A stretch of DNA of 32,000 nt from Candidatus Saccharimonadota bacterium (GCA_016700135.1 CP065004.1:600001-632000), one strand, 5' to 3'; positions 9,019 to 32,000 are shown, numbered from the stretch's first letter. Notes: generated by a model not told the origin, from the sequence alone. Program-made: numbers and translations.

Positions 9019-9792
9019 GTTTAAAAATTAACAGAAAAACTTACGCCTGTCAATAGTATAAAATATCTAAGCTCTATAAAGCGCTATGACAAAGATTAAT
9101 TATCAGATTTTATATAAATCTGCTAAAGGTTGATACAAGTATTTTAGACTTTAATAAAAGGCTAGAAAAAATCAAATATTGAAAAGGTTGTCCTAACAGT
9201 ATCTCGAAAATGCCTACAATAGCAGTACAATTACGTTCTGACGTTAGGAATAATAGTGATTATTATCAAAAATTGAGACTATATCTTTATAATTGTTTAT
9301 ATAAGTACTATAGGGTCAAGTCTTATCTACTTCTTGGACAAAGGAAATCAGGAATAAGGTATTTTAACAAAGCCATATATAAATATAAGGGATATAAATT
9401 AACATTGATTATATATTAATATAAGTTATTAGATAACATGGGTCCAAACTAAATATTCAATGATAAAATCAAATATAGAATGAAAGAGCAATCTATATTA
9501 ATGATTTAAACTTATAGTAAATTAATAGTTGTGGGAGATATAGAACTCAGCTTAAATATGTAAATATAAGGCAACAATAATTGATATATGGGGCTTACAA
9601 AAGCCTAAAGACTTTATAATTCAATTGTGATTAATTTAAAATATGTTCGTACGTAATAATATTATATTGAGCCCTATAAATTAGAATAGTTACCGCTGGA
9701 ATTTTAAAATTTACGTTAGTACTTCTTTTAATTCTTATCGTCGTAACCATATATGATAATGTTAAGATTGTAAGGATTCTTTTATAACCTAC

Positions 9793-11409
9793 ATGTTATC
9801 ATTGTTAGTAGATATGGCTAAAAAAACGATTGATAATCTACAACACACAATCCATCGCAGACTTTTTTCAACGAGAGATATTAAAGAACTCATAGATCTG
9901 AAAAATGAATTGAAGGAATGGATTAATTGGCTTAAAGAGAGTGATAAGGTTACTAAATCAGAATATCAGTACCTTAGTAGTTTAGTTGAAGAGAAGGTGG
10001 AGGAAAGAAGTTCTCAATTTGAAAATCCGCTGAATCAAGTAAGTAATTTTAACACGAGTAGGAAAAAAGTATTTTCATTACTTCTGATTCTCTTTGCGTT
10101 ATTACTAGTAATTTTGAGTTTGTATTTAATATATAAGCCTGCAAACGTTGAAGTTGAGCGATCATCTGACGGAACCTTGCCCTTTAGAGGAACGCTGAAA
10201 AACGCGGAAGGAAATCCTATTGATACGAAAACTGATGTCATATTTCGTTTGTACGCTCAGCCTAATACAGGATCTCCATTATATGAAGGCAGATGCATTG
10301 GAACAGAAGGAATAGAACCGGATTATCGCGGTGAATTTACGGTTATATTAGGATCCGATTGTAGTATGGATCCTATTCCTGAAGCAGTCCTTACAAATGA
10401 AGTCATTTTTTTGGGAGTTGCTATTTCAACAGGAGAAGAGATTATGCCCCGCTATCGGATATTAAGCTCTACCTATTCACAAAATTCAGCTCAGGTATCC
10501 GGTAAATCGGTAGGAACAGGTACCAATGACATTCCATATCTTAATGAAAATGGATTAATACTCATTGAAGCCTCTGATCCAGCGCTAAAAGCAACGTCAG
10601 GAGAATTTACTATAGAAGGAGCTTCATTAAGCCTCAAAACAATTAGTGGGGGAGAGGGGAACATAACATTACAGCCCGATGCAGGAGGATATACACTCAT
10701 ACCTTCAGGGAATGTGGGGATAGGAATTTTTGAACCGACTTCAAAACTTGAAATAGCAGGCCTCGAACCATACAACCCAATAGCAAGCATTAAGAATATC
10801 AGTATTGAAGATTCTGAGAACACACAAGTTATGTCATTAGGACTTGCAACTCCAAGTACAAGTGACAATGCAAAATTTATTTCTTTTCGAGCTGATGTTA
10901 CAAAAGAAGAAGCCGGAGTTGAGGTGGGGTCAATAAGACTCAATAACAATGGGGTATCTTATGAAACAAAAGGAGCAGATTTTGCTGAGTATTTTGAAAT
11001 AAGTTCTCTGACAGAATATCCGTTAGGAACTATAATGGCAATTTCTGAGACAGGCATTTCTGCTGCAAAAAAAGAGGAGGTCCTTGTGGGAGCAATTTCA
11101 GGTACGGCCGGCTTTATCGGAAATGCAAAAGAGAATACCAATAACTCGCAGCTTATCGGTTTAGTAGGGCAAATTGATGTTCTAGTCACAAATGAGAATG
11201 GTCCGATCGAACGAGGAGCCAGTATTGGAATAGGCACTGTACCCGGATACGGGATATCTGTCCGAGCTACTCACATCGTAGGATATGCACTTGAAAACCC
11301 GAAAGCAATGCAATCTGAATTATGTCCTCAGGAGTTTCGTAGTGTAAAAGATACCTCTGGTAATCCAATAAAATGCGGCAAGGTTAAAATTCTTTTGCGC
11401 CCGAATTAG
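9793..11409 (+). CDS. membrane-anchored tail-fibre-like protein with Peptidase_G2/IMC-like C-terminal module
   Basis: 538 aa. Cytoplasmic coiled N-terminus and a TM helix at about 10069-10134. The fibre N-terminal motif LPFRGTLKNAEGNPIDTKTDVIFRLY...GEFTVILG and GNVGIGIFEPTSKLEIAG follow. GADFAEYFE (10975-10998) matches the ADYAEYFEW hallmark of the Peptidase_G2 IMC domain. An alternative start is ATG 9814 (MAKKT). Confidence 0.7.
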   Translation: MLSLLVDMAKKTIDNLQHTIHRRLFSTRDIKELIDLKNELKEWINWLKESDKVTKSEYQYLSSLVEEKVEERSSQFENPLNQVSNFNTSRKKVFSLLLILFALLLVILSLYLIYKPANVEVERSSDGTLPFRGTLKNAEGNPIDTKTDVIFRLYAQPNTGSPLYEGRCIGTEGIEPDYRGEFTVILGSDCSMDPIPEAVLTNEVIFLGVAISTGEEIMPRYRILSSTYSQNSAQVSGKSVGTGTNDIPYLNENGLILIEASDPALKATSGEFTIEGASLSLKTISGGEGNITLQPDAGGYTLIPSGNVGIGIFEPTSKLEIAGLEPYNPIASIKNISIEDSENTQVMSLGLATPSTSDNAKFISFRADVTKEEAGVEVGSIRLNNNGVSYETKGADFAEYFEISSLTEYPLGTIMAISETGISAAKKEEVLVGAISGTAGFIGNAKENTNNSQLIGLVGQIDVLVTNENGPIERGASIGIGTVPGYGISVRATHIVGYALENPKAMQSELCPQEFRSVKDTSGNPIKCGKVKILLRPN

Positions 11410-11430
11410 TTCCACTTTAATTATACATAT

Positions 11431-11447
11431 AAGAGGTAAGACCTCTT
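11431..11447 (+). terminator. weak hairpin after the 9793 gene
   Basis: AAGAGGT-aag-ACCTCTT, a 7-bp stem 22 nt after the stop. Only a short T-run follows. Confidence 0.3.
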
Positions 11448-11548
11448 TAGTCTTCAGAAAATTTTGTCAAAAAACGGTCAAATAGGGAGGAGATTGTGAC
11501 CAGAAAAGGATTGTCACAAAACTTTTTGTAAGCTTTTTGAGAAAGGCA

Positions 11549-11577: not shown

Positions 11578-11585
11578 CAGGTAAT

Positions 11586-13655
11586 ATGAGTACACAGTCC
11601 AAATCTATTAACAAGATCCTTCAATTTGTTATATACGGGATCGTATTCTTGTTCCCGCTCTTTTTTGTGCCTATAACACGGGACTTTTTGATATACAGCA
11701 AATTTTACTTTCTTGTTTTTGCTGTGTTTGGTCTTTTGTTTCTTTCATTCGGCAAATTTCTTGTCGGCAGAAAATTTACTTGGATTCATAATCCGGCAAC
11801 ACAATCGATGATTTTGATACTGCTCTCATATATCCTTTCTATCGTACTCATGTCACCGAATAAGTTACAGGCAATTTATAACCCTCAATATGGGCTGGTT
11901 ATGATCAGTGCGTTCATAATCTTTTATTTTTATGCATCGCATGTATTTTCTAAGGCAAGTATTTCTCCGATTTTACTCCTTGCGATTTCCGGTGCCTTGG
12001 TATCTGTCTTTTCCTTGATTATTATGGTTGACCCGTTCCAGAATGCAACGTTACCGGCATACTGGTCATTCCTGACAAATACAACATTCAATCCTATCGG
12101 ATCATCTATTCACTTTCTGGCATATTTGATATTTGTACTTGCCGGGCTCGGATTTTACATGTGGAGAATGTACAAATCACAAAGACATAATGATGATCAA
12201 AATAAAGTCATGATGATAATTTTAGGAGTGATTGCGCTTTTTACACTACTTGCAGGCATCTTCCATATTTTTGTGATAACACAGCAAATCATGAATGAAG
12301 GTGCTCAAATTGTGATTCCTCCCTTTGGTTTGTCTTGGTATGCTGCTGTTGAAGTCTTGAAGAACCCGATGACAGCATTATTCGGAGTAGGTGTCGACAA
12401 TTTTGCAACACTCTTTACTCAGGTTCGTTCTATAAATTACAACCTGACTGATCTGTGGCAGGTGAATTCATTCAATACCTCACGTTCGGTATTATTGCAC
12501 ATATTGACAGAAAATGGGATCTTAGGGTTAGTCGGGTTTACACTGCTTGTTTCACTTTTTTTCAAGAGAATAAAAGATGTAAAAATCGAGACCGCAGCTC
12601 TGTTTGTGATCTCGCTGATAATCATGCTGATCCTTCCTCCTTCGATCATTTCCTTCTTTATGTTCTTCCTCAGTTTGGCACTGATGGCCGCTGACCTGCA
12701 CAAGAAATCATCACAGGAAGAATATATTATTGACTTGACCGGGCTTATGCCAATATTTATCGGAATGATTGTTCTCTGTCTACTGGTACTCGGTAGTACA
12801 GTTTATTTCCTGGGACGACACTTTATGGCTGAATATTACTTCAAGAAATCTCTTGACGGAGTAGCCTCAAATAGTCTCCAGCAGCTCTATGAGAATCAGG
12901 TCAAAGCACTGCAATACAATAGTGCGAGTGAAGAATTCCATAGACAATTTGCTCAAACTAATCTGTTAGTAGCCAATAATATAGCTGCAAAAGAACAGGA
13001 CTCATTGACTGATCAGGATAGACAAACCATTGCTCAGGCAATACAGGCATCAATCGTTGAGGCAAAAACAGCAGTTTCACTGAATCCTTTGAAAGTGACG
13101 AACTGGCAAACACTTGCAGGTGTTTATCGACAGATTGTGAATGTCGCTGAAAACGCTCCTGTATGGGCAGTGTCTGCTTATCAGCAGGCAATTGTTCTGG
13201 ATCCCCGTAACCCTGTCTTGAGACTCGATCTGGGGGGAATATATTATCTTTTCCAGAACTATGATGAATCCCAGAAGATGTTTGAACAGGCTGTATCATT
13301 GAAACCGGATTGGGCGAACGCTCACTACAACCTTGCATGGACATATTATCAAAAAGGCCTTTACGGACCTGCAGTTGACCAAATGCAGATTGTAGTAGGG
13401 CTGATAGATCCTGCGACACAGCAGGAAGATTATAAAGCTGCTCAAAGCACTCTTGAAGATTTCAAGGCGAAATATCAGGAGGCTCTGGAACAGCAGGCAA
13501 CGCAGCAAGCTGGAGAAGAAGGAGAAGAAACTGTAGCTCCGAGTCCGACACCGTCACCTGCAGAATTAGTTTTACCCTCACCGCCGGCAACAAATCTTGA
13601 AGAAAAGATAGAGTTACCCGAAGAGGCTTCACCGGAAGCAAACGTTGAACCGTAA
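11586..13655 (+). CDS. O-antigen ligase / Wzy_C-like polytopic membrane protein with C-terminal TPR domain
   Basis: 689 aa with at least 10 hydrophobic helices. The Wzy_C hallmark SVLLHILTENGILGLVGF (H...E.GI.G) is present. C-terminal TPR repeats (AYQQAIVLDPRNP..., FEQAVSLKPDWANAHYNLAWTYYQKG) are followed by a Pro/Glu-rich tail. Confidence 0.8.
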   Translation: MSTQSKSINKILQFVIYGIVFLFPLFFVPITRDFLIYSKFYFLVFAVFGLLFLSFGKFLVGRKFTWIHNPATQSMILILLSYILSIVLMSPNKLQAIYNPQYGLVMISAFIIFYFYASHVFSKASISPILLLAISGALVSVFSLIIMVDPFQNATLPAYWSFLTNTTFNPIGSSIHFLAYLIFVLAGLGFYMWRMYKSQRHNDDQNKVMMIILGVIALFTLLAGIFHIFVITQQIMNEGAQIVIPPFGLSWYAAVEVLKNPMTALFGVGVDNFATLFTQVRSINYNLTDLWQVNSFNTSRSVLLHILTENGILGLVGFTLLVSLFFKRIKDVKIETAALFVISLIIMLILPPSIISFFMFFLSLALMAADLHKKSSQEEYIIDLTGLMPIFIGMIVLCLLVLGSTVYFLGRHFMAEYYFKKSLDGVASNSLQQLYENQVKALQYNSASEEFHRQFAQTNLLVANNIAAKEQDSLTDQDRQTIAQAIQASIVEAKTAVSLNPLKVTNWQTLAGVYRQIVNVAENAPVWAVSAYQQAIVLDPRNPVLRLDLGGIYYLFQNYDESQKMFEQAVSLKPDWANAHYNLAWTYYQKGLYGPAVDQMQIVVGLIDPATQQEDYKAAQSTLEDFKAKYQEALEQQATQQAGEEGEETVAPSPTPSPAELVLPSPPATNLEEKIELPEEASPEANVEP

Positions 13656-13668
13656 ACTTGAACCTAAG

Positions 13669-14952: not shown

Positions 14953-17900
14953 ATGAAAACATATACCAAACTTTTTATGTCGACTGAACAAAAGGATTAC
15001 AACCTGTCTCCAAAAGAATTTGCACACCTGGTAGGTGTATCTTCATCTACAGTTCGACGATGGGAAGAGGAAAAAGTTTTTACTTCAGTTCGTACTCCGT
15101 CAGGATATCGAAAATTTGCGTTGAGCGATGTTCCTAAAGCGAAAGAATACAAAAATCAAGTCAATGCAATAAAAAAACAAAAAAGTCAGGAGCATATTTA
15201 CAGCATTACATCAAAGCAAGCTATTCAGAAACATAATTACCCGGTAGTGGACTTTATTTTTAAACGTGCTGCTGTATTGTCACTGGCTGTTTTACTTATG
15301 ATAGTTACTGCTGCGGCTGTCGCTACTTATCCTGCTGTGAAATCTATTATGTCGGACAGGTATCAGGCCAAGTCAGAAAAGACGTTAGGTGAAAAAGAGG
15401 GCAACATTTCTGAAACGGATGACATGAATGTACTTGCAGCTGAATCAAGCCGTTTAGCCCGTTCCATCATTAGTAATATCGGGTGGGATTTTCGCTCTAC
15501 AGTAAAAATAGAAGATCTACAGGTGAACGGGCCCTCGGTATTTTTAGATGATATTGATGCACGAGGGCAGAATCTAGATTTGGGGACAGGTAGAATTACG
15601 GCATCAAATGTCCTGTATGGGGTCGAAGCAGGCAAGGGTATCAGTATTGCAGGCACGACACAAAGCCCTTTGATAACCAATATCGATCCAGGCTCGGCAC
15701 AGGAAATTTTTAAGAATATCAAGGTTGGTTCAAATACAATTACTGCATCAAGCAATACTGACACGTTAACATTCGAGCAGGGAAGCGGGATTACTCTGAC
15801 TGTAGACGGTAAAAAAGTAACCATTGCAAGTTCACAATCAGGATATTCATACTGGACGACAGAAGTAGACGGAGTAAGTTACGACAATATAGAAGATGGA
15901 TCGTCGGTTAATTTTGTAAGCGGAGATGACATTACCGTTACGCGGTCGGCTGCAAATGAATTAACATTTAATCTCCAGGATGTTATTGATACCGTAACGG
16001 GAATAGACTTAACCGCAGGCGGTTATCTTACTGGTACCAATGCAACAATAACTTTTGATAACTTCTCGGTAGACGCAAGCGGAAATATCCGTATTGCTGC
16101 CGGGTCCGATTTTTATATCGGCAATGTGCAGTTGGGAAGTATTGGATCTTCTTCAGGAGCATCTTTAATTGGCGTAGACGGCACTAATATTTCACAGTCA
16201 GCTTCAGGAGATCTACAGACAGTTCTTGAAAATATGTCTGCTGCAATGGGATCAGGCTCTTCCAAATGGACCATTGCTTCTGATGTGATTTATCCGAATA
16301 ACTATTCAACAGCAGATTTCTCATTGGGAGGTACAACTCCAGCAAGTTCTCCGTTCGGTATAGATATTGATCAGAATATTCTGTACTTGGGGGACGGAGC
16401 AAATGATGCCAATACGCCATCTCTCTATTTCAAGGCATCGGATGGCTCAAATTGGGGAACTTTATCTTACTCGGATTCTGATAGGTTTGTTTTTTCAGGT
16501 GGTGATGTTGTTGTCGACGGTGTGATTTATGCGGGTTCAGGAACACAGCAAATCACTTTAGCAAACGGTATGCTGAATCCGAATGCGCTGCCGCTTATTA
16601 CATCCGGAACTTCACCGACAACAAGTTCCGTCTCAGGTTTTGAGATCTTAAGTAATCAAATAGGTCTTATCCGAGGCTGTTCAAACGGTGAGGTTTTAAA
16701 ATGGAATTCGACAACTTCACGGTGGACCTGTAGCCCCGATTCCTCCGGTGTATCTGGCGTTGTGGACGTACAACAGGACGGCTCTATCCCTGCAGGTTCT
16801 GCTGACTCTCAGTTTGATACGATCAATTTCGTAAATAATTTTAACCTTTCTGAAAATAGCTCTGGGGTGATTGATGTAGACCTTGCAAGCAATATCGGTA
16901 TAGGTACAGCTCCCTCAGGTTCATATGCTCTCACTGTAAATGGTGCAACAAATACAAGTACTTTGTATCTCTCAGGTACCCAGGTAACTGCTTCTGCAAA
17001 TGAGATAAATCTACTGACTGGCCGTACCGGGACATTGCTTGACACCAATAATGTAGCTACACAGTTATCAGCCTGGGATCAGAATGCTTCAGATGATGTA
17101 ACGGCTTTTACAGGACTGAGCGATACTCCTTCAAGTTATTCGGGCCAGGCAGCGAGAGTCGTACGGGTGAATGCAGGAGGTACGGGACTTGAATTTGTTG
17201 ATCCTGCAACCCTTGGGACGAATTACTGGGGGAGGAATTCAGGGAGCGGGTATGTATATCCTTCGGTCGTGACAGATAGAGTCGGAATCGGGACTTCGAC
17301 ACCCACCCAGATGTTAGATGTTCAGGGAAACATAGCAGTATCAGGTACCGTAGACGGACGTGATGTTTCAGCTGACGGATCAAATCTTGACACTCTCTAC
17401 ACGACGATCGGACTTTCGGCTTTGACGAGTGGAGAGGTCGATCAACTCGAGAACATCGGAGCTACAACAATCAGCAGTACCCAGTGGGGATATCTTGGGT
17501 CTCTTAATCAGAGTGTAAGTACTACAGATGCCGTTACTTTCACAACGATCAATACGGGACAGGGAGCCTATGAGTTGTATGCGATGGACCAGAATGTGAG
17601 GACATCTGACACTGTGCAGTTTGCAGGACTTCAGATTGGGGGAGCAACGCCGAATATCACCAGTATCGTTTCAGGAACGGGAACAGATTGGTCAGGGGCC
17701 GTTGATACCGCACTTGCTACGCAGCTTTCTATCAAATCATACGTCGATGCACAAATCGGAGGGGCAGCATATACTTTTGAAAACGGAATTTCTGAATCAG
17801 GAAATACTGTCACTCTTGGCGGTGCTTTAAATCAAAGTACACGATTATACGATGGGTCATACGAATATCTGTATATGAATACAAGCACAGGGAATGTCGG

Positions 17901-20769
17901 AATCGGTACAACAACGACAAGTACTTACAAATTAAACGTTAGTGGATCTTTGAATGCATCAAGTCTTTACTTGACTGGCAGTCAAGTAACTTCAAATGCT
18001 TCAGAATTAAATTTGCTTGATGGAGTAAGTCTTACATTAACAGCAGGTGAATTTAATTTATTGGACGGCAGGTCCGGGACATTGCTTGACACCAATAATG
18101 TAGCTACACAACTATCAGCCTGGGATCAGGACAGTTCAAATGATCTGATAACAACGGATATAGGAGTAACCGTACAAGGTTATAACGCAAATACTTCATT
18201 CCTCGGTCAGACTATTGAAAGCAGTGAGATTACGGACGGAACAATTACCACTAGTGATTTTGCCAGTACTTTGACGTTTGCATCCGGAGCATTCCTGGAC
18301 TTGTCCTCTATTGACTATGGTTCAACTGCTCCTCAGGGATTGAGATTACCGAATGCGACTTCAGCCAATCTTGCTTCAAATAATCCATCAGTGGGTGAAG
18401 GGTATTTAGCATATGATACGGACGTTAATAAAGTAAAAATATTTAACGGTTCTTCCTGGACGGATATTAGCGGAGCCTCAACCACGCTTCAGGAAGCTTA
18501 TGAAGCAGGCAACTCAATTCTCATGAATGCCGGACAGGGGAATATCAGAATTTCTAACGACGGTTCTAATGAACTATTATTCCTTGATGAAGCAACAGGA
18601 TATGTAGGGATAGGGAACACAGCTCCGGGATACAAACTGGATGTGTCAGGAGATATTCGAATTGCAAGCGGGAGTGATTTGTATATCGGAACAACGGCTT
18701 TAAGTTCTATCTCGGGTGCGGGTCTTATCGGAGTTGACAGTTCAAGTATTTCAAGTAGCAGCGCTTCGGATTTGCAATCAGTTCTTGAAGATTTGGATAG
18801 TGCTATCGGCGGAGTAGGAAATTCATCAATTTCAGCAGTCGGTAATATTACATCAGGTGATGCATTCACAAGCGGAACCCCCGGTTCCGAATTGTACTTC
18901 ACTTCATCCGGTGTTCTCGGTCTCGGAAACACCGCCTCATCAGCTGCCCGAATAGAGTTTTTCAATGACACCATAGATAGAATTTCGTTGCTCAGCTCTT
19001 ATGTCGGAATCGGAACCACTGCTCCTGTCGCGGCTCTTGATGTCCAGGGAGCAATCAGGCTTGGTGCAAGTGGGGGAATATCTGATACATTGAATACGAT
19101 TTCAGCTGGAACGGCTCCGAGTGCAAGTCTTTATTGGGGGAGTTACAGAATATGTACGACCGGAGATTCTTGTGCAGGGGGAGCAGGCGGAGGGGTAGAC
19201 AGTACGGGAGGGACAGGCTACTTAGCAAAATTTACGGATCAATATAATGTTGAAAACTCTATTCTCTATGAATCCGGAGGGAATATTGGAATAGGAACTA
19301 CTGTAACCGGTACCTATAAAGTAAATGTAAGCGGATCTTTAAACACTACAACCCTTTATCTGGCAGGTACACAAGTTAATGCAACGGCTACAGAGATCAA
19401 TTTGCTGTCGGGAAGATCAGGGACATTACTGGATACAAGCAATGTAGCTACACAACTATCAGCATGGGATCAGGATAGTTCAAATGATCTGATAACAACC
19501 GATATCGGATCAACAGTGCAGGGTTACAATGCCAATACTTCATTCCTCGGTCAGACCATTGAGACGGGAGAGATCACAGATGGGTCAGTACTTCCTGCGG
19601 ATGTAGATGACAACGGTCAGACACCTGGGGACGGACAGGTACTGACATACAATAATTCGAACAGTAAGTTTAACTGGGTTGACGCGACAAGTTTGGGTAC
19701 GAATTATTGGGGGAGGAATTCAGGGAGCGGGTACGTATATCCTGCGGTCGTGACGGACAGGGTGGGTATTGGTAATACGGCTCCTACTGAGGAGTTGGAT
19801 GTAACCGGAGATATAGCGGTGAGCGGAACAGTAGACGGACGTGATATTTCAGCAGATGGGTCAAGCTTGGATACATTGTATACAACGATCGGACTTTCAG
19901 CATTGACATCAGGAGAGGTGGATCAGTTGGAGAATATTGGAGCTGCAACGATCAGTACGTCACAATGGGGATATCTGGGCGCGATGAACCAGAGTGTAGC
20001 AACGACTGATGCAGTAACATTTACGACGATCAACACGGGACAGGGAGCGAATGAGCTGTATGCAATGGATCAAAATGTACGAACATCTGATACGGTACAG
20101 TTTGCAGGACTGCAGATCGGAGGAACGACACCTTCAATCACAAGTATCGTATCTGGAACGGGGACAGACTGGTCAGGTGCAGCTGATACTGCACTTGCCA
20201 CACAACTTGCCATCAAATCATATGTTGATAATGAAATTGCCGGAGTAACAATAGATGTTTTTACCACCTTTACTGCAGACAGCGGGAGTACAACTGCTAA
20301 TACTGCAGGGGACACACTGACAATAAACGGTTCAGGAAGTATTACAACTTCGATATCTGGAGATACACTGACAATTACCGGAACGGATAACGATACAACC
20401 TATTCCGCAGGAAGCGGCCTCAGTCTCGCAAGTACTACTTTCAGTCTGGGAGGAGCAATATCACAGCCGACACGTCTCTATGACGGATCATATGAGTATC
20501 TTTATATCAACAACAGTACAGGGAATCTTGGTATAGGGACAACATCGACAGGCACATATAAGTTAAATGTCGGCGGGTCTTTGAATGCATCGTCTCTTTA
20601 TCTTGGCGATACTCAAGTGACATCAACAGCTTCTGAATTGAATTTGCTTGACGGAGTAAATCTCACACTTACTGCTTCAGAATTTAATTTACTGGACGGC
20701 AGATCAGGGACATTACTTGACACAAACAATGTCGCAACACAACTTTCAGCCTGCATCAAACAGCAGTAA
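14953..20769 (+). CDS. giant fibre protein, intact N-terminal 5.8 kb: MerR-type HTH + TM anchor + repeat fibre
   Basis: Track ORF 14938..20769 starts at TTG; the first ATGs are 14953 and 14977. LSPKEFAHLVGVSSSTVRRWEEEKVF...SGYRKF (14998-15117) is a MerR/HTH_17-type helix-turn-helix. The TM helix is AAVLSLAVLLMIVTAAAVATYPAV (15268-15339). The rest is Gly/Ser/Thr-rich, with recurring GIGTTxP..KL(N/D)V.G and ATELNLL.GRSGTLLDTNNVATQLSAWDQ modules. The TAA at 20767 arises from frame loss inside such a module, so it is not a natural end. Confidence 0.85.
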   Translation: MKTYTKLFMSTEQKDYNLSPKEFAHLVGVSSSTVRRWEEEKVFTSVRTPSGYRKFALSDVPKAKEYKNQVNAIKKQKSQEHIYSITSKQAIQKHNYPVVDFIFKRAAVLSLAVLLMIVTAAAVATYPAVKSIMSDRYQAKSEKTLGEKEGNISETDDMNVLAAESSRLARSIISNIGWDFRSTVKIEDLQVNGPSVFLDDIDARGQNLDLGTGRITASNVLYGVEAGKGISIAGTTQSPLITNIDPGSAQEIFKNIKVGSNTITASSNTDTLTFEQGSGITLTVDGKKVTIASSQSGYSYWTTEVDGVSYDNIEDGSSVNFVSGDDITVTRSAANELTFNLQDVIDTVTGIDLTAGGYLTGTNATITFDNFSVDASGNIRIAAGSDFYIGNVQLGSIGSSSGASLIGVDGTNISQSASGDLQTVLENMSAAMGSGSSKWTIASDVIYPNNYSTADFSLGGTTPASSPFGIDIDQNILYLGDGANDANTPSLYFKASDGSNWGTLSYSDSDRFVFSGGDVVVDGVIYAGSGTQQITLANGMLNPNALPLITSGTSPTTSSVSGFEILSNQIGLIRGCSNGEVLKWNSTTSRWTCSPDSSGVSGVVDVQQDGSIPAGSADSQFDTINFVNNFNLSENSSGVIDVDLASNIGIGTAPSGSYALTVNGATNTSTLYLSGTQVTASANEINLLTGRTGTLLDTNNVATQLSAWDQNASDDVTAFTGLSDTPSSYSGQAARVVRVNAGGTGLEFVDPATLGTNYWGRNSGSGYVYPSVVTDRVGIGTSTPTQMLDVQGNIAVSGTVDGRDVSADGSNLDTLYTTIGLSALTSGEVDQLENIGATTISSTQWGYLGSLNQSVSTTDAVTFTTINTGQGAYELYAMDQNVRTSDTVQFAGLQIGGATPNITSIVSGTGTDWSGAVDTALATQLSIKSYVDAQIGGAAYTFENGISESGNTVTLGGALNQSTRLYDGSYEYLYMNTSTGNVGIGTTTTSTYKLNVSGSLNASSLYLTGSQVTSNASELNLLDGVSLTLTAGEFNLLDGRSGTLLDTNNVATQLSAWDQDSSNDLITTDIGVTVQGYNANTSFLGQTIESSEITDGTITTSDFASTLTFASGAFLDLSSIDYGSTAPQGLRLPNATSANLASNNPSVGEGYLAYDTDVNKVKIFNGSSWTDISGASTTLQEAYEAGNSILMNAGQGNIRISNDGSNELLFLDEATGYVGIGNTAPGYKLDVSGDIRIASGSDLYIGTTALSSISGAGLIGVDSSSISSSSASDLQSVLEDLDSAIGGVGNSSISAVGNITSGDAFTSGTPGSELYFTSSGVLGLGNTASSAARIEFFNDTIDRISLLSSYVGIGTTAPVAALDVQGAIRLGASGGISDTLNTISAGTAPSASLYWGSYRICTTGDSCAGGAGGGVDSTGGTGYLAKFTDQYNVENSILYESGGNIGIGTTVTGTYKVNVSGSLNTTTLYLAGTQVNATATEINLLSGRSGTLLDTSNVATQLSAWDQDSSNDLITTDIGSTVQGYNANTSFLGQTIETGEITDGSVLPADVDDNGQTPGDGQVLTYNNSNSKFNWVDATSLGTNYWGRNSGSGYVYPAVVTDRVGIGNTAPTEELDVTGDIAVSGTVDGRDISADGSSLDTLYTTIGLSALTSGEVDQLENIGAATISTSQWGYLGAMNQSVATTDAVTFTTINTGQGANELYAMDQNVRTSDTVQFAGLQIGGTTPSITSIVSGTGTDWSGAADTALATQLAIKSYVDNEIAGVTIDVFTTFTADSGSTTANTAGDTLTINGSGSITTSISGDTLTITGTDNDTTYSAGSGLSLASTTFSLGGAISQPTRLYDGSYEYLYINNSTGNLGIGTTSTGTYKLNVGGSLNASSLYLGDTQVTSTASELNLLDGVNLTLTASEFNLLDGRSGTLLDTNNVATQLSACIKQQ
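17212..18120 (+). repeat. segmental duplication, copy A (coding)
   Basis: 17212-17748 is colinear with 19693-20229 at a constant offset of 2481 nt with no indels. 17815-18120 is colinear with 20446-20751 at an offset of 2631 nt. The encoded proteins are highly similar (LGTNYWGRNSGSGYVYP...SIKSYVD; LYDGSYEYLY...QLSA). Confidence 0.85.
19693..20751 (+). repeat. segmental duplication, copy B (coding, with an extra 150 nt)
   Basis: Partner of 17212-18120. It carries a 150-nt insertion around 20245-20395 (TIDVFTTFTADSGSTT...). The differences between the copies are mostly third-codon-position changes. Confidence 0.85.
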
Positions 20770-23700
20770 TGATGCAATTTATCACATCGCTTACGTCAGG
20801 ATATCTTCCGTACTATGACGGATCAAATCTGGCCAATAGTACCATATATTTGACAGAGGCAATCTTGGCATAGGGACAACAAATCCGTCACAAGCTTGAT
20901 ATCGCTAATTCAACTTTAACGAGAGGATTTAATGTTGTGATGGATACAGATACGGCTGCATACACCTATGGAGGGTATACTGAAATTACAAATGCTTCCG
21001 GTGACTCAGTCGGCCAGATGGTCGTTACTAATCCTCAGCTGGAAGATATTCCACTGGTTATCACGCCAATGTGGAGGCAGGTGCAATGCTTACGGCTTCT
21101 ATACTAATACAACTTCTTCCAACGGGATATTCTATCGGAGTATATCAAACGTTTATGGAGCCGGCGCATCCTCAAATGCGACATGGCGGAATGTTCATGG
21201 CAGAAACTCCGAACATGGAAGCTTACGGTATTTATGCTGCGCAAATCGATACCGGAGGTGGTAAGGCATGGGCAGGATATTTTGACGAAGGAGATGTATT
21301 TATTGCAAATAATGTCGGAATCGGAACCACTTCGACGAGCACATACGCTTTAAATATTAACGGATCGTTAAATACCACCTCATTGTATTTGGCGGGATCT
21401 CAAGTTAGTGCTACTGCCACTGAACTGAATCTGCTTTCAGGAAGATCAGGGACACTTCTGATACAAACAATGTATCGGCACAACTTTCAGCCTGGATCAA
21501 AACAGCAGTAATGATGCACTTATCACATCGCTTACGTCAGGATATCTTCCGTATTATGACGACTGAACCTGGCAAATAGTGCTTTCTACCAGCGGGCGGA
21601 AATATCGGAATCGGTACGACAAACCCCACAGCAAAGCTTCAACTCATTCAAGAGGCAGACTTCCGTACACGGAATTAGCCTACAGAAGGCAGCACTGAAA
21701 GAATGAATTATATGGGGACAGGATCAAATACGTATCTCGACCTTAATCAAAATACGGCAATATCAGAAATACCTCTGCAACAGGAAACATGTGCATATAA
21801 CACTTCCGCGAAGAATCAGCTTTCGTCAACAGATGGCACAGTAGGAGGATTTAGGTTTACTACAAATAATGGTGATAGTTTGGAGATTACAAAGGATGGG
21901 TATGTTAGTATCGGAACGACTACTCCTGCATACGCTCTCGATGTCAACGGTGATATCCGGATAGTAAGCGGTAGGAACTTTATAGTTACGGAAGCGCAAC
22001 GCTAGAATCATACATATTCTGAAGATAACTACATAACTGACGGACAGACATTCACGGCTAGTATTGATGCCCTAGATCAACAGGTAAAGATCTTGCTAAT
22101 AGGAAGCAGGAATGTGGCAGGATCAGACTACCTATATCAATCCAATTAACTTTACCAGTCTGGCCATTACCGATACGGGGGAGAATGGGATCGAACAACG
22201 AACCAAATAACCCGCTTTCTGTGGTCGGGAATGCAGACTTTACGGAAATGTCGGTATCGGAACAACTGAGGTAGGTACATACGCTCTGAATGCGTTGCAG
22301 GGAGCAAATTTTAACAGCATCTATAGGTGGTACGGCAATTGCAGCGACGGCAACTGAACTCAATATTTCTCAGGGCAACAGTCTCAACAGCAGAACCGGA
22401 ATTATCTTGATAACTCAATGGTCACGAACGGATGAATTGTGTTTGGCAACGGTGCCACTTTCACACAAGATGCCGCTACTTCTTTCTGGAATGATAGCAG
22501 CAATTATCTGGGTATCGGTACAACTGCACCGCGCTACTTGATCTATTTGGTACAACAGCAGCATTTCAGATGTCATATGACGCCAGTAATTACGGTAAAT
22601 TCACGATCGGAATGACGGCACACTTACCTGGCGGAGTCAAAGTGCCGGTGGCTCATCACTAATATTGCCCGTTTCTCGACAACAGGAGTAATATCGATGT
22701 CCTGACATCATTCAATGCGACGGGAGATCGTCAGTATCGCAAATGATCTTCAGTTTACCAATCAGTCGGCAGCTATATCAAGACTCTCGGACCTCTTACC
22801 ATCGAAGCCGGAGAAAGTTATGAAAGCAATAACCTGAAATTGAAAACATACAACAGCGGAAGAATAGTGTTTGATGCGCAGGGGAGTGGCACCCAATCAG
22901 GCTCAAAACTGGGATCTTGTCACTTCTACCACAGCCTTGAATTTTGAAAGTGGTCTTTTCAATATTGATACAACAAACAGTAGAATCGGAATTGGTACAA
23001 CAGCACCGGGGCACAAACTGGATGTTTCAGGAGATATTAATGTATCTTCCGTATACAGAATTGGAGGAACTACGGTACTATCTCACAGTTCATCAGGTGA
23101 AAACTGCATTATGGGATTGGATGCAGGTAGTACAGCACCACATCAGAGCTACACAATTAACATTGGTCATGGCAGCATTAATCTAAATAGTACTAACGCC
23201 GATCAAAATACTTGTAGGAGCATGGGCGGACAAAGTGTTACCAGTGGAAAATAATAATGTCCCGATAGAAATGATTCCGGCGCAACACTGACTACAGGAT
23301 ACAACAACTTTATCGGAGGATCTTGGGCTGGTATTGGTTCACGGCAGCATATAACGTAGCTCTGGGTTATTCTGCAGGAGGAAGTAATACAAACAGGAAA
23401 CAGCAATACGATGGTGGGTGCATGCTGATGTCACGTCAGGAGGTAATTACAATACAGTACTGGGCTGTTCAAAACGCAGCTTCAGCATATAGTTCGTCTA
23501 TCATGCTGGGTTACTCTGCCGTAGCTACTGCATCAAACCAATTTCTCGTGGGTGGAAATAATGCAAACGGATATATTAATGATACGTATTTCGGTCGGGG
23601 AGTAGTAGTGCTACGCCGAATGACATAACACTGAATGCCACCGGAGGATCAGTGCAGTGATATTACCGGAGCAAATATGATTCCCGCAGGCGGTAAAGCA

Positions 23701-24378
23701 ACGGGAATGCAGACGGCGGAGATATTATTTTTAAGACTTCCGATGTCGGGCTCGTCAGGGACCACGTTGCAGTCACTTACTGAAAAATGAGATTGACTGA
23801 TGAAGGAAGACTCGGAATCGCACTACAGCCTCGGATGCAACCTCGATGTCAACGGCAGCGGTAACTTTACAAGTCTGTGTGTCGGAGGAACCCAAATCTC
23901 AGCGACAGCAACAGAGCTGAATATTCTTTCAGGGCTACCATTTCAACAGCAGAACTGAATTATCTGGACAACTCAACAGTCATGAACGGAGGAATTGTGT
24001 TTGGGAACGGTGCAAATTTCACGCAGGATGCAGCAAATTTCTTCTGGAATGATACATCAAAATAGATTGGGTATCGGGACTACGGCACCGAATACGTCAT
24101 TGGAATTGTTCGGAAGTACGGCAGGATTACAATTTGTCATATGATGCAATTAATTACGGTACCCACGATCGGGAGTGATGGGACATTGACATTGGCAGGA
24201 GTAAGTGCAGGCGGATCACTTACGAATATTGCGCGATTCTCAACATCTGCTGTCAACATTGATGTTCCGACATCATTTAATGCAGCCGGTGATGTGTCTG
24301 TCGCATATGATTTGTACTTCACGAATCAGACAGCATCATACATAAAATCGGACGGGCCTTCAGTATCGTGTCCAGTGA
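20770..24378 (+). pseudogene. frame-broken continuation of the giant fibre gene
   Basis: Fibre motifs continue but hop between all three frames. Fragments in the ORF track are 21071..21511 (NVGIGTTSTSTYALNINGSLNTTSLYLAGSQVSATATELNLLSGRSGTLL), 21703..22005, 22290..22541, 22871..23254 (SRIGIGTTAPGHKLDVSGDINV), 23323..23628 (Hep_Hag-like LGYSAVATASNQFLVGG), 23877..24065 (TAELNYLDNSTVMNGGIVFGNGANFTQDAANFFWND) and 24141..24386 (GSDGTLTLAGVSAGGSLTNIARFSTS...). No antisense ORF is convincing. Confidence 0.7.
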
Positions 24379-25746
24379 AGCCTTGAGAACAATGATCTGA
24401 CCATCGAGACCTATGGGACAGGAAATATTGTTCTGAAAGCAAACAGCGGAAATATATGGGCAGACGGATCTGCAGTCGGTATCGGGACAACTGCTCCTGC
24501 ACGGACATTGCATGTAATCGTGGGTTCGACGGCACCGCCGGTCAGATTCCAAGATTCAGACGGGTACTGTGAGATCAATCCTACAACGACTACCTGGACG
24601 TGTACCTCTGATGCTACATTAAAGGAAGATGTTGAGACACTTTCAAGCATCTATAATCTTGAAAAACTCAATCAGCTGAGACCTGTTTCATTCAAGTGGA
24701 AAACTCAAAATGATGATGATAAGCGCTTCGGACTTATTGCCCAGGAAGTTGAAACATTGTTCCCCGAATTTGTACAGACGGATGAAAACGGATTGAAATC
24801 TGTATCCTACGGATCATTTACCCCGATTCTGATTTCTGCCGTGCAGGAGCAGCAACTTCAGATTGAAGGTCAGCAAAGCAGTCTCACAAAACTGACGGAG
24901 GAGCTTGCACTTGTAGTAAATGAAGATACGGGTGTAGTAACAAGCAGTCTTATTGATACTCTTACTGAGGAAACAGAGAATATCGCTGATCGGACGGCTG
25001 CGGTTGAAGGAGAGGTTGAAGCACTGGCGGAAAAAGACAGTCAGATTGAGACACGGCTTATTACCATTGAAGAAAGACTCAATGCGCTTGAACAGGCATC
25101 TGCATCAGCCTCGCTCGATAATTTGAATGATCGTGTAGGATTCCTTGAACAATTATTTACTGGTATTCAGGCATCCGGTTCTGCTGATTTGAGTACGTAT
25201 CTGGCCGAGCTCATCGATGGTCAAATTCTCGGTCTTCAGTCAGATGAAGCAACTCTCTCTGCATTGACAGTGAGCGGAGATACGAATGTAAACAATCTTG
25301 CCGTAACAGGGGAGATCAGCAGCGGACTTTTGATTATCAACGGATTTGATGACTCACTCGCGACACCAGCTGCTACTATCTCTACGCTGGGAGGATCTCT
25401 CAAGATTCAACATCTCGGACTTGGAGAAATCGAATTTATGGCAGGTAAGTCAAAAATTGATACGGACGGAGACTTTATCATGTTAGAAGGAGATTTGGTA
25501 ATAGAAACAGGGGTGATCAAAGGAAATGATCAATTCAGAGGAATTGACGTGCCGGCAGTATTTAGCTCAACTTACCTTGATATCGATTTTGAGAGCATGA
25601 AAGATACGGACGAGTATGCTGTAAACATTACTCCGACTTGGCTTACAAATGTAGCAGTCATAGAGAAACGGACGGATGGTTTCCGTCTCCAGTTCTCAGT
25701 ACCTGCACCTTTGAACGGAAAAATCGACTGGATGATTATTGAATAA
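24379..25746 (+). CDS. C-terminal part of the giant fibre gene: Peptidase_S74 intramolecular-chaperone domain + coiled coil + beta-rich terminal domain
   Basis: The frame is open from 24379 with no ATG. The track start 24508 is a TTG inside a GIGTTAPARTLHV motif, so this is a continuation and not a separate gene. TSDATLKEDVETL...LRPVSFKWK...RFGLIAQEVETLFPEFV...GLKSVSYGSFTPILISAVQEQQ is the S74 (endosialidase chaperone) signature, at about 24604-24870. Confidence 0.85.
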   Translation, partial: SLENNDLTIETYGTGNIVLKANSGNIWADGSAVGIGTTAPARTLHVIVGSTAPPVRFQDSDGYCEINPTTTTWTCTSDATLKEDVETLSSIYNLEKLNQLRPVSFKWKTQNDDDKRFGLIAQEVETLFPEFVQTDENGLKSVSYGSFTPILISAVQEQQLQIEGQQSSLTKLTEELALVVNEDTGVVTSSLIDTLTEETENIADRTAAVEGEVEALAEKDSQIETRLITIEERLNALEQASASASLDNLNDRVGFLEQLFTGIQASGSADLSTYLAELIDGQILGLQSDEATLSALTVSGDTNVNNLAVTGEISSGLLIINGFDDSLATPAATISTLGGSLKIQHLGLGEIEFMAGKSKIDTDGDFIMLEGDLVIETGVIKGNDQFRGIDVPAVFSSTYLDIDFESMKDTDEYAVNITPTWLTNVAVIEKRTDGFRLQFSVPAPLNGKIDWMIIE

Positions 25747-30104: not shown

Positions 30105-30147
30105 TATTTCTTCTTGTTCCTTCGATCAAAAACAGGTAGAATGAAGT

Positions 30148-32000
30148 ATGCTGGGACGACTTTCTGTACTAAAAGTAGTAAGGTTAAAACTTTCTAAATT
30201 CTTTCGTTCGTTCATTTTGTCGCTCAAACGTATCCCTCACCTGCACAATAAAAGCGAATATAAAAAATTGCTCCGTTTACGGACAGCACTCATCGGTATA
30301 CTCGGTTTAATAATCGGTATATCTCTGGTGTCGGTATTTCTCCTGAAAGGAAGAGGTGCTTCGGCAAACTGGTATAACGACAATTGGAAGTATCGGAAAT
30401 CGGTTGCGCTTCCGAATCATACCGCTGAGGAAAGTAATGTGTTTATAACGATACCTATTGATACCGCGACTCTTATCAGTGCCGGTAAACTGCAGTCAGA
30501 TTGTGGAGATTTTCGATTTACCGATAATACAGGGAAATTGCTCGAGTACTATATATCTTCAGGCTGCAACACTTCTGATACAAAAATTGACGTAAATATG
30601 ACGACATATGGTGCGGGAAGTTTGGTTTTGCATGCATATTACGGGAACCCATTGGTTGAAAATGGCTTTAGCTTGACAGGATTCAGCACCAGTGCATCGA
30701 ACAATGCTGCAACGATAAATTTGCAGGTTAACGCGAGTGGGAATGACGGAGATACTCAGATTGCCGGAGATCTTGATAACTCGCTGACAAGAGCATTTAT
30801 TCCCATGGGTGTTTACAATGGGAATACCCATATGGCTGTTGTGCGATTCTTAGGCGCTTCTATTCCCCAAGGTACAACAATAACATCTGCTACGTTTACC
30901 CTGACAGGATTAAATACGTGGGATTGCGGGGGTTGCAGTATGGATTACATACTATTTGGTGAAGATGCTGATACAGCAACTGCATTAACATTAGATAATA
31001 TGAATAATCTGACTCCTACTACAGCTAACGCTACTTGGTCTCTGCCAAGTGTGGTGGCAGAGTCCGAATATAGCAAAGACGTGACTAGTATAATTCAGGA
31101 AATAGTAAGTAGAGGAGGGTGGTCCACCGGGAATGCAATATCTATTATACTCGCCGATAACGGGAGTGATTACGGAGAATGGCAGGAGTTCTATTCCTAT
31201 GACGGCAGTACTTCAAAAGCAGCAAAACTTTCAATCACATATTCATCAGGTGGAACACCAGCATTCGGCTCAGAGGAAATTGCCCCGGGTCCGGCAGCAT
31301 ACTGGAGATTTGACGAGGGATATGGGACGGGCGTGAATGATACGTCGGGGAATTCACAGACAGGAACCTTGGGCACGGGATCGTCTGCCCCGACATGGAG
31401 ATCCGAAGAATATTGCCAGAATGGAAGTTGTCTGCAGTTTGACGGCACAGACGATTATATCCAATGGGCTGATAGCAGCACCCTTGATATTGAGAATGAG
31501 CTCACAATATCACTCTGGGTCAAGCCGATTTCACTCCAGAGCTCCACATATTACACGTTAGTTTATAAAGGAAACTCAACTAATGAGGTTAATTATTACT
31601 TTCAATTGTATGGGGATGAACTTAACTTCGGTACATACCAATCAGGATGGAGAGGAACAAATACAACGAATGCTGATATCCAGACGAACCAATGGTCTCA
31701 TGTAGTCGTGACTTATTCAGATGCCTCTGATGATATTGATTTTTATGTTAACGGGATTTTGAAATCAGATGATGGTTTCAGTCATAATCTAGTGCTTTCC
31801 GCTGATAATCAGCCGTTTTATCTCGGCTCTTCTGCCGCTGATTTGGAATTTTATGACGGGTTTATGGATGAGGTCAAGATATATCCATATGTCAGATCTG
31901 CAGATGAGATAAAACAGGACTATTTATTTTCCGGTGCAAAAGGAGCAGCTGCGGTACTGGGGACACAGGATCGATCTTTTTTATCTGAAGGGTTGGTGGG
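30148..32000 (+). CDS. DUF2341 + LamG domain surface protein (3-prime end outside the window)
   Basis: This gene is not in the ORF track because no stop codon lies in the window. Hand translation of the frame from ATG 30148 is open to 32000. It has the TM helix ALIGILGLIIGISLVSVFLL. NWKYRKSVALPN...NVFITIPID...CGDFRFTDNTGKLLEYYI is the DUF2341 signature. From 31291 there is a LamG domain paralogous to the first LamG of the preceding gene. Confidence 0.8.
   Translation, partial: MLGRLSVLKVVRLKLSKFFRSFILSLKRIPHLHNKSEYKKLLRLRTALIGILGLIIGISLVSVFLLKGRGASANWYNDNWKYRKSVALPNHTAEESNVFITIPIDTATLISAGKLQSDCGDFRFTDNTGKLLEYYISSGCNTSDTKIDVNMTTYGAGSLVLHAYYGNPLVENGFSLTGFSTSASNNAATINLQVNASGNDGDTQIAGDLDNSLTRAFIPMGVYNGNTHMAVVRFLGASIPQGTTITSATFTLTGLNTWDCGGCSMDYILFGEDADTATALTLDNMNNLTPTTANATWSLPSVVAESEYSKDVTSIIQEIVSRGGWSTGNAISIILADNGSDYGEWQEFYSYDGSTSKAAKLSITYSSGGTPAFGSEEIAPGPAAYWRFDEGYGTGVNDTSGNSQTGTLGTGSSAPTWRSEEYCQNGSCLQFDGTDDYIQWADSSTLDIENELTISLWVKPISLQSSTYYTLVYKGNSTNEVNYYFQLYGDELNFGTYQSGWRGTNTTNADIQTNQWSHVVVTYSDASDDIDFYVNGILKSDDGFSHNLVLSADNQPFYLGSSAADLEFYDGFMDEVKIYPYVRSADEIKQDYLFSGAKGAAAVLGTQDRSFLSEGLV

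Follow-up and report, generated by a model that had tools for sequence, protein, structure and literature searches.

In this study, we analysed a 32,000-nucleotide (nt) stretch of a Candidatus Saccharimonadota bacterium genome (GCA_016700135.1, CP065004.1:600001-632000; here called the window), in which six consecutive plus-strand genes, termed P1, P2, P3, the giant fibre gene, P5 and P6, run from 9793 to beyond 32000. Coordinates refer to the whole window, its first letter being 1, and related loci from genomes and metagenomes are numbered L001, L002 and so on. The six genes probably belong to a vertically inherited chromosomal cell-surface locus, not a prophage, which takes the form of a three-unit neighbourhood of membrane-tethered fibres and lectin-type proteins. 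The protein sequence of P1 is that of IPM65_03380 (100% identity), encoded on a 1,448,136-bp contig of a Candidatus Roizmanbacteria metagenome-assembled genome (MAG), a member of the candidate phyla radiation (CPR)/Patescibacteria. The initial annotation, made from the sequence alone, had placed the six genes at the same positions and had also taken them to be cellular, and on both points our results agree with it.

The gene order fmt-Rho-TrxB-(GDH)-M23-PaaX-P1-P2, with PaaX on the minus strand, recurs in about a dozen relatives (L001, L002/L011, L005, L006 and L012-L018), and across these syntenic loci the identity falls from 64% to 37% for P1 and from 95% to 45% for P2. At 25-33% identity, P1-like and P2-like genes are also found beside M23 and Rho in L020, L023 and L024, which are Parcubacteria-type loci. 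Where relatives can be followed rightwards past the fibre gene, they carry housekeeping genes, namely ComEC/ComEA in L018 and NDK, an Rce1-like protease and a sortase after the LamG gene in L033, and no phage structural gene flanks the recurring order in the relatives that can be viewed. As the initial annotation had stated, the 32 kb contain no open reading frame (ORF) for a capsid, portal, terminase, tube/sheath, baseplate, lysis protein or integrase, and the PHROG matches are confined to tail-fibre-type domains. A tblastn search with P1 against 50,697 phage genomes gave no match, and when the last 412 amino acids (aa) of the giant were compared with phage genomes, tail fibres matched only about 100 residues of the Peptidase_S74 (S74) domain, at 34-45% identity. 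Pattern scans of IMG/VR, which find only fairly close relatives, detected none for P1, for either terminus of the giant or for P5.

The locus is made up of three units with different distributions, PaaX/P1/P2, P3 plus the giant, and the LamG/DUF2341 array, and the first of these is the most widespread. The proposal in the initial annotation of a single six-gene apparatus was therefore abandoned. A terminator-like hairpin after P2 marks off the P1-P2 unit from the pair of P3 and the giant, which follow straight after P2 in the window, L001, L002, L010 and L016. P5 begins 14 nt after the giant and P6 40 nt after P5, and the order fibre gene followed by LamG gene is found again in L033 and L074. 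Several observations weigh against a single neighbourhood with a fixed composition. P2 and P3 are separated by an ATP synthase operon in L005 and L012-L015, where P3 and a giant-like gene are divergently oriented; L022 has the P3/giant arrangement of L005 after a P1-like gene, with no P2 homologue detected. L018 has a 1,330-aa protein made of MerR, a transmembrane segment and S74, without P3; L006 and L008 have neither the giant nor P3; and LamG arrays occur elsewhere too, for example in a cell-division cluster in L030. In addition, the window sequence stops at 32000, and the context to its right is judged from L018, L033 and L074.

A simple hydropathy scan gave one N-terminal hydrophobic segment, preceded by basic residues, in each of P1, the giant, P5 and P6, and about 10-12 segments in P2. 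With the signal-peptide-like N-terminus of P3, this bears out the earlier assignment of a single N-terminal transmembrane segment or signal peptide to five of the six proteins, although the polytopic protein is the second gene and not, as had been proposed, the sixth. Most of the modules listed by the initial annotation were recovered by the searches described below, that is, the GIGTTxP repeats, an ADFAEYFE Peptidase_G2 (G2)-like module and a paralogous beta module, S74, at least seven LamG domains, DUF2341 and a MerR domain that it had named for checking. It had made no mention of the frameshifts in the giant, of the relation of P3 to ATPase c subunits or of the recurrent cytoplasmic DNA-binding-type domains on the fibres.

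P1 begins with a cytoplasmic helical N-domain (aa 1-94), and a transmembrane segment (aa 95-113) leads from it to a beta-sandwich at about aa 125-235. Next comes a fibre segment, in which one capping-loop motif occupies aa 306-321 (nt 10708-10755), and last a G2 domain (Pfam PF11962, E 9e-7), which scored 29 bits where the cut-off is 25. The motif G-A/S-D-F-A-E-Y, including D396 and E399, is invariant among 23 aligned homologues of P1, whose family is small (32 proteins in a 5.8-billion-sequence collection). When the P1 family profile was compared with the PDB, it matched the C-terminal fragment of phi29 gp12 (3gqh, E 6e-13), the alignment beginning at fragment residue 1 (DFAEYFE). Because this is the residue produced by gp12 self-cleavage, the cut in P1 is predicted at A395|D396, and D396 and E399 would correspond to the G2 catalytic pair. 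The same profile matched Bdellovibrio Bd2133 (8ond, E 3e-6) over aa 297-335 only, the loop region. An AlphaFold monomer of P1 (mean pLDDT 73) showed three cytoplasmic helices, the transmembrane helix and a confidently modelled beta-sandwich (aa 125-235) and G2 domain, while the fibre stretch was poorly modelled, as expected when a trimer is modelled as a monomer. In a Foldseek search of the PDB, this model gave 3suc as the best match (E 8e-5), followed by 3gqh (E 1.9e-4, TM(target) 0.54), and its best viral fold matches were 'preneck appendage' proteins (E 7e-8). All structure models are AlphaFold monomers in which the fibre parts have low confidence, a point that weighs against the reading proposed here.

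In distant P1-like proteins of 1,445-1,593 aa in L020, L022 and L024, two Phage_int_SAM_1 domains (E down to 1e-22) precede a single hydrophobic segment at about aa 345-385, after which come a fibre region and G2. In these proteins (L020 6674-11452, L022 8879-13213, L024 5693-10066), the SAM-like domains lie on the cytoplasmic side of the single transmembrane segment and no recombinase catalytic domain is present. The N-terminal helices of P1 of the window were also considered as a degenerate SAM-like domain of this kind, but the hhalign comparison was non-significant and the link rests only on the distant homologues and neighbouring ORFs. Another arrangement is seen in L023 (1-5598), where one protein of more than 1,866 aa has both chaperones, S74 at aa 1181-1234 and G2 at aa 1376-1467, and is followed by a P2-like gene. 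ToxR and CadC are membrane-tethered regulators, and the helix-turn-helix (HTH) domain of RodZ binds MreB. By analogy, the cytoplasmic SAM-like and MerR domains described here could be membrane-tethered regulators or binders of a cytoplasmic partner.

P2 is the most conserved protein of the locus (95%, 90% and 58% identity in L001, L002 and L005, respectively). Its family has 924 representatives at E<=1e-3, most of them 600-750 aa in length and with the same layout of membrane segments and tetratricopeptide repeats (TPR). The initial annotation had described the polytopic protein as Wzy_C/O-antigen-ligase-like. However, Pfam Wzy_C (PF04932) did not match P2 of the window even at E<=10, and it was found in only one of 11 orthologues (E 0.009) and in nine of 55 family representatives (best E 2.4e-7). 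The hhalign comparison with E. coli WaaL was non-significant (probability 0.5%), the aligned piece being the expected ..H..E.G..G.. region, and the P2 profile matched only TPR proteins in the PDB. 'O-antigen-ligase-like' is thus a lead only: it is possible, judging from these sequence matches, that P2 is a distant Wzy_C-type glycan transferase. The earlier suggestion that the apparatus may be glycosylated rested on the Wzy_C call, which could not be established. P2 appears to be an obligate partner in its unit.

The giant begins with a MerR HTH (from nt 15004) and a transmembrane segment (15268-15324), followed by a Ser/Thr/Gly-rich repeat fibre, S74, a long coiled coil and a small beta-sandwich. 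MerR was detected at 35.9 bits against a Pfam cut-off of 28.2, and it is kept in L001, L002, L016 and L018 and doubled in L022. The S74 domain, with its SDxxxK dyad present as SDATLK, scored 59.5 bits against a Pfam cut-off of 22, and in Foldseek this part of the giant matched the MyRF ICA domain (7dc3, E 3.6e-5, TM(target) 0.64) and the endosialidase chaperone (3gw6, probability 0.99-1.0). Cleavage by S74 is predicted to release a 379-aa C-terminal fragment. The beta-sandwich (25540-25743, the last approximately 70 aa) was modelled with a pLDDT of about 90, and would leave with the chaperone if S74 cleaves; its matches were weak and limited to an H-type lectin and a pyocin fibre knob. The 412-aa terminal module of the giant behaves as a portable cassette, because it is also joined to beta-propeller repeats in other metagenomic proteins. 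A terminal domain shared between the giant and long P1-like proteins, with ends of the type '..W(W/M)I(I/V)(N/E)', was considered and dropped, as BLASTP was non-significant.

The fibre of the giant contains at least nine strict matches to the GIGTTxP/capping-loop motif. It is internally duplicated (aa about 684-1050 against 1480-1925, 49-85% identity), and the window has approximately 2.4 kb of extra internal repeat (17074-19464) relative to the L001 orthologue. The length of the orthologues differs, from 1,330 aa in L018 to 3,141 aa in L001, where MerR to S74 is one intact ORF, and about 3,590 codons in the window. The Hep_Hag/YadA-head-like repeats that had been reported were not supported: Pfam found none in the intact part of the giant or in a hand-joined translation of 22.9-24.2 kb, and in the L018 orthologue the match (E 0.048) was below the cut-off.

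Residues 31-148 of P3 and the G2 module of P1 are homologues (profile-profile hhalign, probability 98.2%, E 2.9e-14), and this domain corresponds to the paralogous beta module of the initial annotation. P3 has PF-x-x-A-T where P1 has DFAEYFE, so that the catalytic residues are absent, and its predicted mature N-terminus is about where the released G2 fragment begins. After correction of the reading frame, its C-terminus is a two-helix hairpin, FGR..GVEALGRNPLA..GII.N, with an invariant G-V/I-E-A-L-G-R-N-P-x-A. When a profile of 24 P3 hairpins was compared with the PDB, the top eight matches were all F-ATPase c subunits (E 0.0012-0.17), and P3 also gave 17.9 bits on NCBIfam ATP_synt_c, below the cut-off of 43.95. 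Helix 2, which holds the coupling-ion site in c subunits, has no acidic residue (Asp/Glu) in any of 50 distinct hairpins; 49 of the 50 have Asn at +15 from the loop Arg, one turn earlier than the carboxylate site. P3 belongs to a large family: JGI metagenome contigs contain at least 429 confirmed relatives. On a conservative reading of these sequences, P3 would be an accessory, c-derived membrane anchor that carries a chaperone-like domain, and a docking or trans-chaperone role may be suggested for it.

P5 contains six Laminin_G_3 stretches (Pfam, E 2e-154), and P6 contains one (E 4e-30) together with DUF2341 (25.2 bits against a cut-off of 23.4). P5 is 32% identical over 1,448 aa to a DUF2341-LamG protein encoded after the S74 fibre gene in L033; no P6 orthologue was found on the L001 or L002 contigs in the P6 homologue search. 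LamG/DUF2341 arrays stand alone in another Roizmanbacteria MAG (L029). In another CPR genome (L030 3765-16907), genes for LamG (2,077 aa), DUF2341 (550 aa) and LamG (1,765 aa) proteins lie between MraY and FtsW within a MurA-MraY-...-FtsW-MurG-FtsQ-FtsA cluster. A match of P5 to TafC of haloarchaeal Tat-fimbriae was below the cut-off and was set aside as mere LamG similarity. Concanavalin-type lectins are abundant in Patescibacteria and are presumed to have a role in attachment (PMC12911398); our literature searches on DUF2341/LamG and on S74 in Patescibacteria gave nothing specific.

The genomic context of P3 raises the question of whether it belongs with the fibres at all. We surveyed L034-L113 and L005 (P3 at 19008-19793, minus strand). 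In 52 of the 56 metagenome loci with downstream room, a same-strand run of b-like, delta, alpha, gamma, beta and epsilon genes comes after P3; alpha is its immediate neighbour in a few of them, and the operons of L074, L077, L085 and L102 have no b and delta. Neither an a-like polytopic ORF nor a small c ORF was found within the P3-headed ATPase operons of the metagenome loci. A MerR/giant-like gene with a single transmembrane segment is divergent upstream of P3 in 24 of the 46 loci with upstream room. Since P3 heads an ATPase operon in most relatives, it may have a role unrelated to the fibres, which would count against the reading that we favour. The same data, with the c subunit matches of the hairpin and a topology that would place any N-terminal addition to a c subunit outside the cell, are what could be expected if P3 and the giant were an ATPase-associated machine and not part of a passive adhesin set. 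P3 would then be the c-ring-like rotor or membrane base of a divergent F1-type ATPase, with G2-like domains displayed externally, by which the fibre is assembled, held or moved. Divergent F1 near giant surface proteins is known from Mycoplasma, in the F1-like X0 ATPases and the gliding machinery of M. mobile (NCBIfam MMOB1660/1670, MSC_0618/0619). All F1 subunits of L005 fall below the NCBIfam equivalog cut-offs, and its alpha subunit scores nearly as well on the MMOB1660 model of the gliding-motor ATPase (389 bits) as on the best F0F1 alpha model (399 bits). However, CPR proteins generally score under equivalog cut-offs, so the low scores may only reflect the general divergence of CPR; the a and c genes may lie elsewhere, split atp operons being common; and the similarity to c subunits is modest and covers a short hydrophobic segment, with no evidence of a physical link to the fibre. 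Moreover, P3 in the window, L001, L002, L010 and L016 is away from ATPase genes and still beside the giant. An ATPase-associated machine is therefore rather improbable in our view. Its strongest form is still less probable, and we put it forward as a long shot: P3 as rotor or base of an operon-encoded ATPase without a and without an ion-binding c, with a G2-like crown outside, forming with the giant an ATP-powered machine that assembles, tensions or moves the fibre and is widespread in Microgenomates-type CPR. We found nothing specific in the literature on an ATP synthase lacking a and c in Patescibacteria.

A different possibility is that unrelated surface or envelope proteins have come to lie side by side in a variable region, each with its own role, for example in glycan capture, envelope structure or as a phage decoy. 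The different phyletic distributions of the units, the hairpin between P2 and P3, the LamG/DUF2341 arrays that stand alone or in a cell-division cluster and the general abundance of concanavalin-type lectins in Patescibacteria (PMC12911398) would all fit. Nevertheless, the P1-P2 pairing is kept down to 25-33% identity across CPR classes, P3 and the giant are adjacent, in tandem or divergently, in many lineages, and the order of the giant and LamG genes is repeated in L033 and L074, with narrow gaps in the window; we consider such independence unlikely. The giant itself might be a genuinely decaying pseudogene in the source organism. Its frame breaks after 20769, at least 27 frame switches are needed for a stop-free reading of 20766-24383 against none in flanks of equal length on either side, and nowhere does the gene differ more from its L001 orthologue than in this zone (47-69% identity, compared with 79-88% upstream). 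Around 7.5 frameshifts per kb confined to 3.6 kb could indeed be real decay. On the other hand, recognisable, conserved fibre peptides run on in all three frames, both gene ends and the downstream genes are intact, and intact paralogous copies made it possible to resolve two indels in the zone, both of them G-run contractions; runs of at least five bases are rarer in the zone (0.8/kb) than in the intact N-terminal part (4.3/kb) or in the giant C-terminus plus P5 (2.2/kb). P3, moreover, has a 1-base deletion near 14466 that fits an AA-to-A contraction, the other frame giving the sequence kept in all orthologues and ending at 14583, and Rho (2448-3757) lacks one base at about 2920, where it reads, against L001, GACTTC-CTTCATCC. 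The split Rho indicates that indel errors also occur outside the fibre island. Because the essential Rho and the conserved P3 are broken as well, and because the indels that could be resolved are homopolymer contractions, the frameshifts in all three genes most likely arose as consensus errors when long reads were assembled, with strain variation hampering polishing where they cluster, and there is only a small chance that the giant is a pseudogene. IP-prefixed locus tags such as that of the P1 match probably come from a Nanopore-based MAG study of activated sludge. The frameshifts have left about 3,180 of its codons unannotated, as the NCBI annotation has only the last 408 aa (24508-25746), a 'tail fiber domain-containing protein'. 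No reverse transcriptase ORF was found in the window and the match to Mtd_N was below threshold; a diversity-generating retroelement thus does not explain the variable zone. Finally, S74, G2 and the fibre motifs are typical of phage receptor-binding proteins, and PHROG tail-fibre families match the S74 part, which is why a remnant prophage or a tailocin tail-fibre module has to be considered. With a conserved housekeeping context in about a dozen genomes, no other phage gene in the 32 kb, an N-terminal membrane anchor on every protein and the phage and IMG/VR searches described above, this explanation is close to refuted.

The initial annotation could name no described system of this composition, but two relevant precedents exist. 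One is the abundance of concanavalin/LamG lectins reported for Patescibacteria (PMC12911398), and the other, which is the closest analogue, is the characterised superfamily of mosaic adhesive trimer (MAT) fibres of Bdellovibrio bacteriovorus, which has S74 and non-S74 subfamilies and in which the SDxxxK motif of the S74 chaperone/protease was defined (Caulton et al. 2024, PMC10769870). Like the MAT genes, those described here are chromosomal, non-phage genes of a bacterium living on other bacteria. They encode long beta-helical fibres that are trimeric in Bdellovibrio and predicted to be so here, with S74 bearing SDxxxK and mosaic, swappable tips; the MAT capping loop V-G-G/N-x-x-x-P-x-x-x-L here reads GNVGIGTTxPxxKL. 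The differences concern the anchor above all. MAT proteins have a signal peptide and a conserved beta-rich N-terminal domain of about 130 aa, whereas P1 and the giant have a cytoplasmic N-domain and a single transmembrane segment, which in the giant is an uncleaved anchor after the cytoplasmic MerR HTH, and distant P1-like proteins have two integrase SAM-like domains. In addition, P1 uses a G2 chaperone instead of S74, the host is a monoderm-type CPR cell, and P2, P3 and the LamG arrays have no MAT counterpart. Relative to MAT, the features that appear from sequence to be new are the transmembrane anchor with a cytoplasmic HTH, the use of a G2 chaperone by a cellular fibre, a chaperone-like domain that stands by itself on a c-like hairpin, and a conserved polytopic TPR partner.

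Individual modules can be compared with further systems. P1 resembles the phi29 gp12 pre-neck appendage in having DFAEYFE at the N-terminus of the cleavage product, with Asp and Glu three residues apart and the same fold (3gqh, 3suc), but it is a cell membrane protein without a virion attachment domain, without the teichoic-acid-degrading beta-helix and without a phage tblastn match. Release of the gp12 chaperone reportedly needs ATP, which is not available outside the cell. The giant shares the Pfam S74 domain, SDxxxK and the fold of 7dc3 and 3gw6 with endosialidase, T5 pb1 and MyRF, and differs from these S74 proteins in having about 290 residues after the Pfam S74 core (coiled coil plus beta-sandwich). 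MyRF also has a DNA-binding-type domain and one transmembrane helix; however, its DNA-binding domain and chaperone are on the same side of the membrane and cleavage frees a transcription factor, whereas in the giant they lie on opposite sides of the predicted transmembrane segment. Bacterial genomes, for example in Blastocatellia, Chloroflexi and Bacteroidota, commonly encode non-phage 'tail fiber domain-containing proteins' with S74. P3 is like an F-ATPase c subunit in its two-helix hairpin, its G-x-E-A-x-G-R-N/Q-P loop and its place at the head of an atp-like operon in relatives, and unlike it in having a secreted G2-homologous domain of about 190 aa before the hairpin and no carboxylate in helix 2. 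As in the Mycoplasma F1-like ATPases, the alpha and beta subunits are divergent F1 proteins, the operon has no canonical Fo a or c, and giant membrane-anchored surface proteins are encoded nearby; in contrast to them, no score reaches the cut-off of either family, the operons described here keep gamma, delta, epsilon and b-like genes, and there is no evidence of motility.

In the mechanism that we propose for this cell-surface locus, domain content, motifs, folds, topology signals and synteny are the observations, and trimerisation, cleavage, surface display and adhesion are what they lead us to infer. Judging from hydropathy and charge, P1 and the giant would be inserted N-in by a single signal-anchor helix. 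Their C-terminal chaperones would nucleate trimers of the ectodomains and then cleave themselves, a scheme for which we have the conserved motifs and folds, and for which phi29 gp12, endosialidase and MAT provide the chemical precedent; in this sense the initial description of the apparatus as auto-chaperoned is retained, with cleavage as a prediction. After its cut at A395|D396, P1 would be a short membrane-tethered fibre with about 280 ectodomain residues. In the giant, MerR would lie in the cytoplasm and one transmembrane segment would cross the membrane, leaving over 3,000 residues outside as a beta-helical fibre that bears capping loops of the MAT/S74 type. Bd2133 measures about 150 Å for about 370 aa (PMC10769870), and by rough scaling from it a fibre of at least 3,000 residues might exceed 100 nm. 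The mature fibres would stay tethered by their transmembrane segments and project through the wall, the non-catalytic G2 copy of P3 on its membrane-tethered c-like hairpin may serve in docking or as a trans-chaperone, and the LamG proteins would add lectin-type binding. The PaaX-like protein would regulate P1-P2, judging from their conserved divergent adjacency. By analogy with the Bdellovibrio fibres, a plausible role is adhesion, that is, contact with and recognition of other cells or glycans.

The left part of the window (1-9018) is occupied by housekeeping genes, identified by Pfam and orthologue tables as fmt, Rho, a CsoR-like repressor, TrxB, GDH, a LysM-M23 peptidase and the minus-strand PaaX-family regulator, and the coordinates of the locus are given in Table 1. 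The left border drawn earlier, PaaX plus an AT-rich spacer, was found as described. The regulator is divergent beside the P1 homologue, at 52-90% identity, in all loci that reach that far. The spacer has no ORF longer than 69 aa, no Rfam family and no tRNA by ORF, Rfam and tRNA scans, and the Rfam and tRNA scans of the whole window likewise gave nothing. A block beside the PaaX start (9019-9060), AAATTAxCAxAAAAA..TACGCCTGTCAATAG, is conserved in the aligned parts of L001, L002 and L005, the rest of the spacer being poorly conserved; the block is a candidate operator or promoter. L006 and L008 have a Phage_int_SAM_1 ORF of 162-169 aa (L006 9464-9973, L008 9474-9962) in the corresponding space, just upstream of the P1-like gene. 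Some of the GTDB representative MAGs with the locus (L010, L012, L014, L015, L018, L019, L022 and L024) are titled 'uncultured Gammaproteobacteria' or 'Weeksellaceae'; the locus is clearly CPR-type, and these titles look unreliable.

Table 1. Features of the surface locus and its left border in the window.
Feature	Coordinates	Strand	Remarks
PaaX-family regulator	8266-9018	-	PaaX_M E 1.7e-18, PaaX_C E 1.6e-10; divergent from P1
AT-rich spacer, 774 nt	9019-9792		25% GC
P1, short membrane-anchored fibre	9793-11409 (likely true start 9814)	+	538 aa
G2 autochaperone module of P1	10978-11406	+	Begins at D396 of GA|DFAEYFE; predicted self-cleavage A395|D396
P2, polytopic membrane protein with C-terminal TPR repeats	11586-13655	+	689 aa; TPR matches
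Terminator-like hairpin after P2	13666-13702	+	16-bp stem and T run
P3	13754-14500 (open frame, 248 aa); corrected end 14583 (276 aa)	+	Signal-peptide-like N-terminus, G2-like domain, c-subunit-like hairpin
Giant fibre gene	ORF opens 14938, orthologue start 14977, ends 25746	+	10,770 nt (14977-25746), about 3,590 codons
Frameshift-ridden zone of the giant	20766-24383	+	At least 27 frame switches
S74 core of the giant	24607-24774	+	SDATLK at 24607-24624; Pfam E 3.9e-16
P5	25761-30104	+	1,447 aa; N-terminal transmembrane anchor, six Laminin_G_3
P6, incomplete at window end	30145 to beyond 32000	+	Transmembrane anchor, DUF2341, borderline DNRLRE-like region, LamG

The attachment of CPR/Patescibacteria to other cells is largely unexplained beyond the type IV pili of Saccharibacteria (PMC11665869). 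The locus provides testable candidates for cell recognition in CPR, with self-cleavage predicted to the residue, at A395|D396 in P1 and at the serine of SDATLK in the giant. The repeated fusion of fibre ectodomains to cytoplasmic DNA-binding-type domains (MerR; SAM-like) suggests that contact at the surface may be relayed directly to the cytoplasm or nucleoid. The case of the giant also calls for caution, since what are most likely indel errors in this MAG break real genes, and automated annotation shows 408 aa of an encoded protein that has about 3,600. P3 offers a lead on the ATPase puzzle, as its c-like hairpin has no proton- or sodium-binding carboxylate and is fused to a secreted phage-chaperone-type domain. 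If the rotor reading were true, the P3-giant machine would be loosely comparable to the F1-like motor of Mycoplasma gliding, and it would bear on why Patescibacteria without respiration keep an F-type ATPase (PMC11665869). The locus thus links two open questions of CPR biology, how these cells attach to their hosts and what their ATPase is for.

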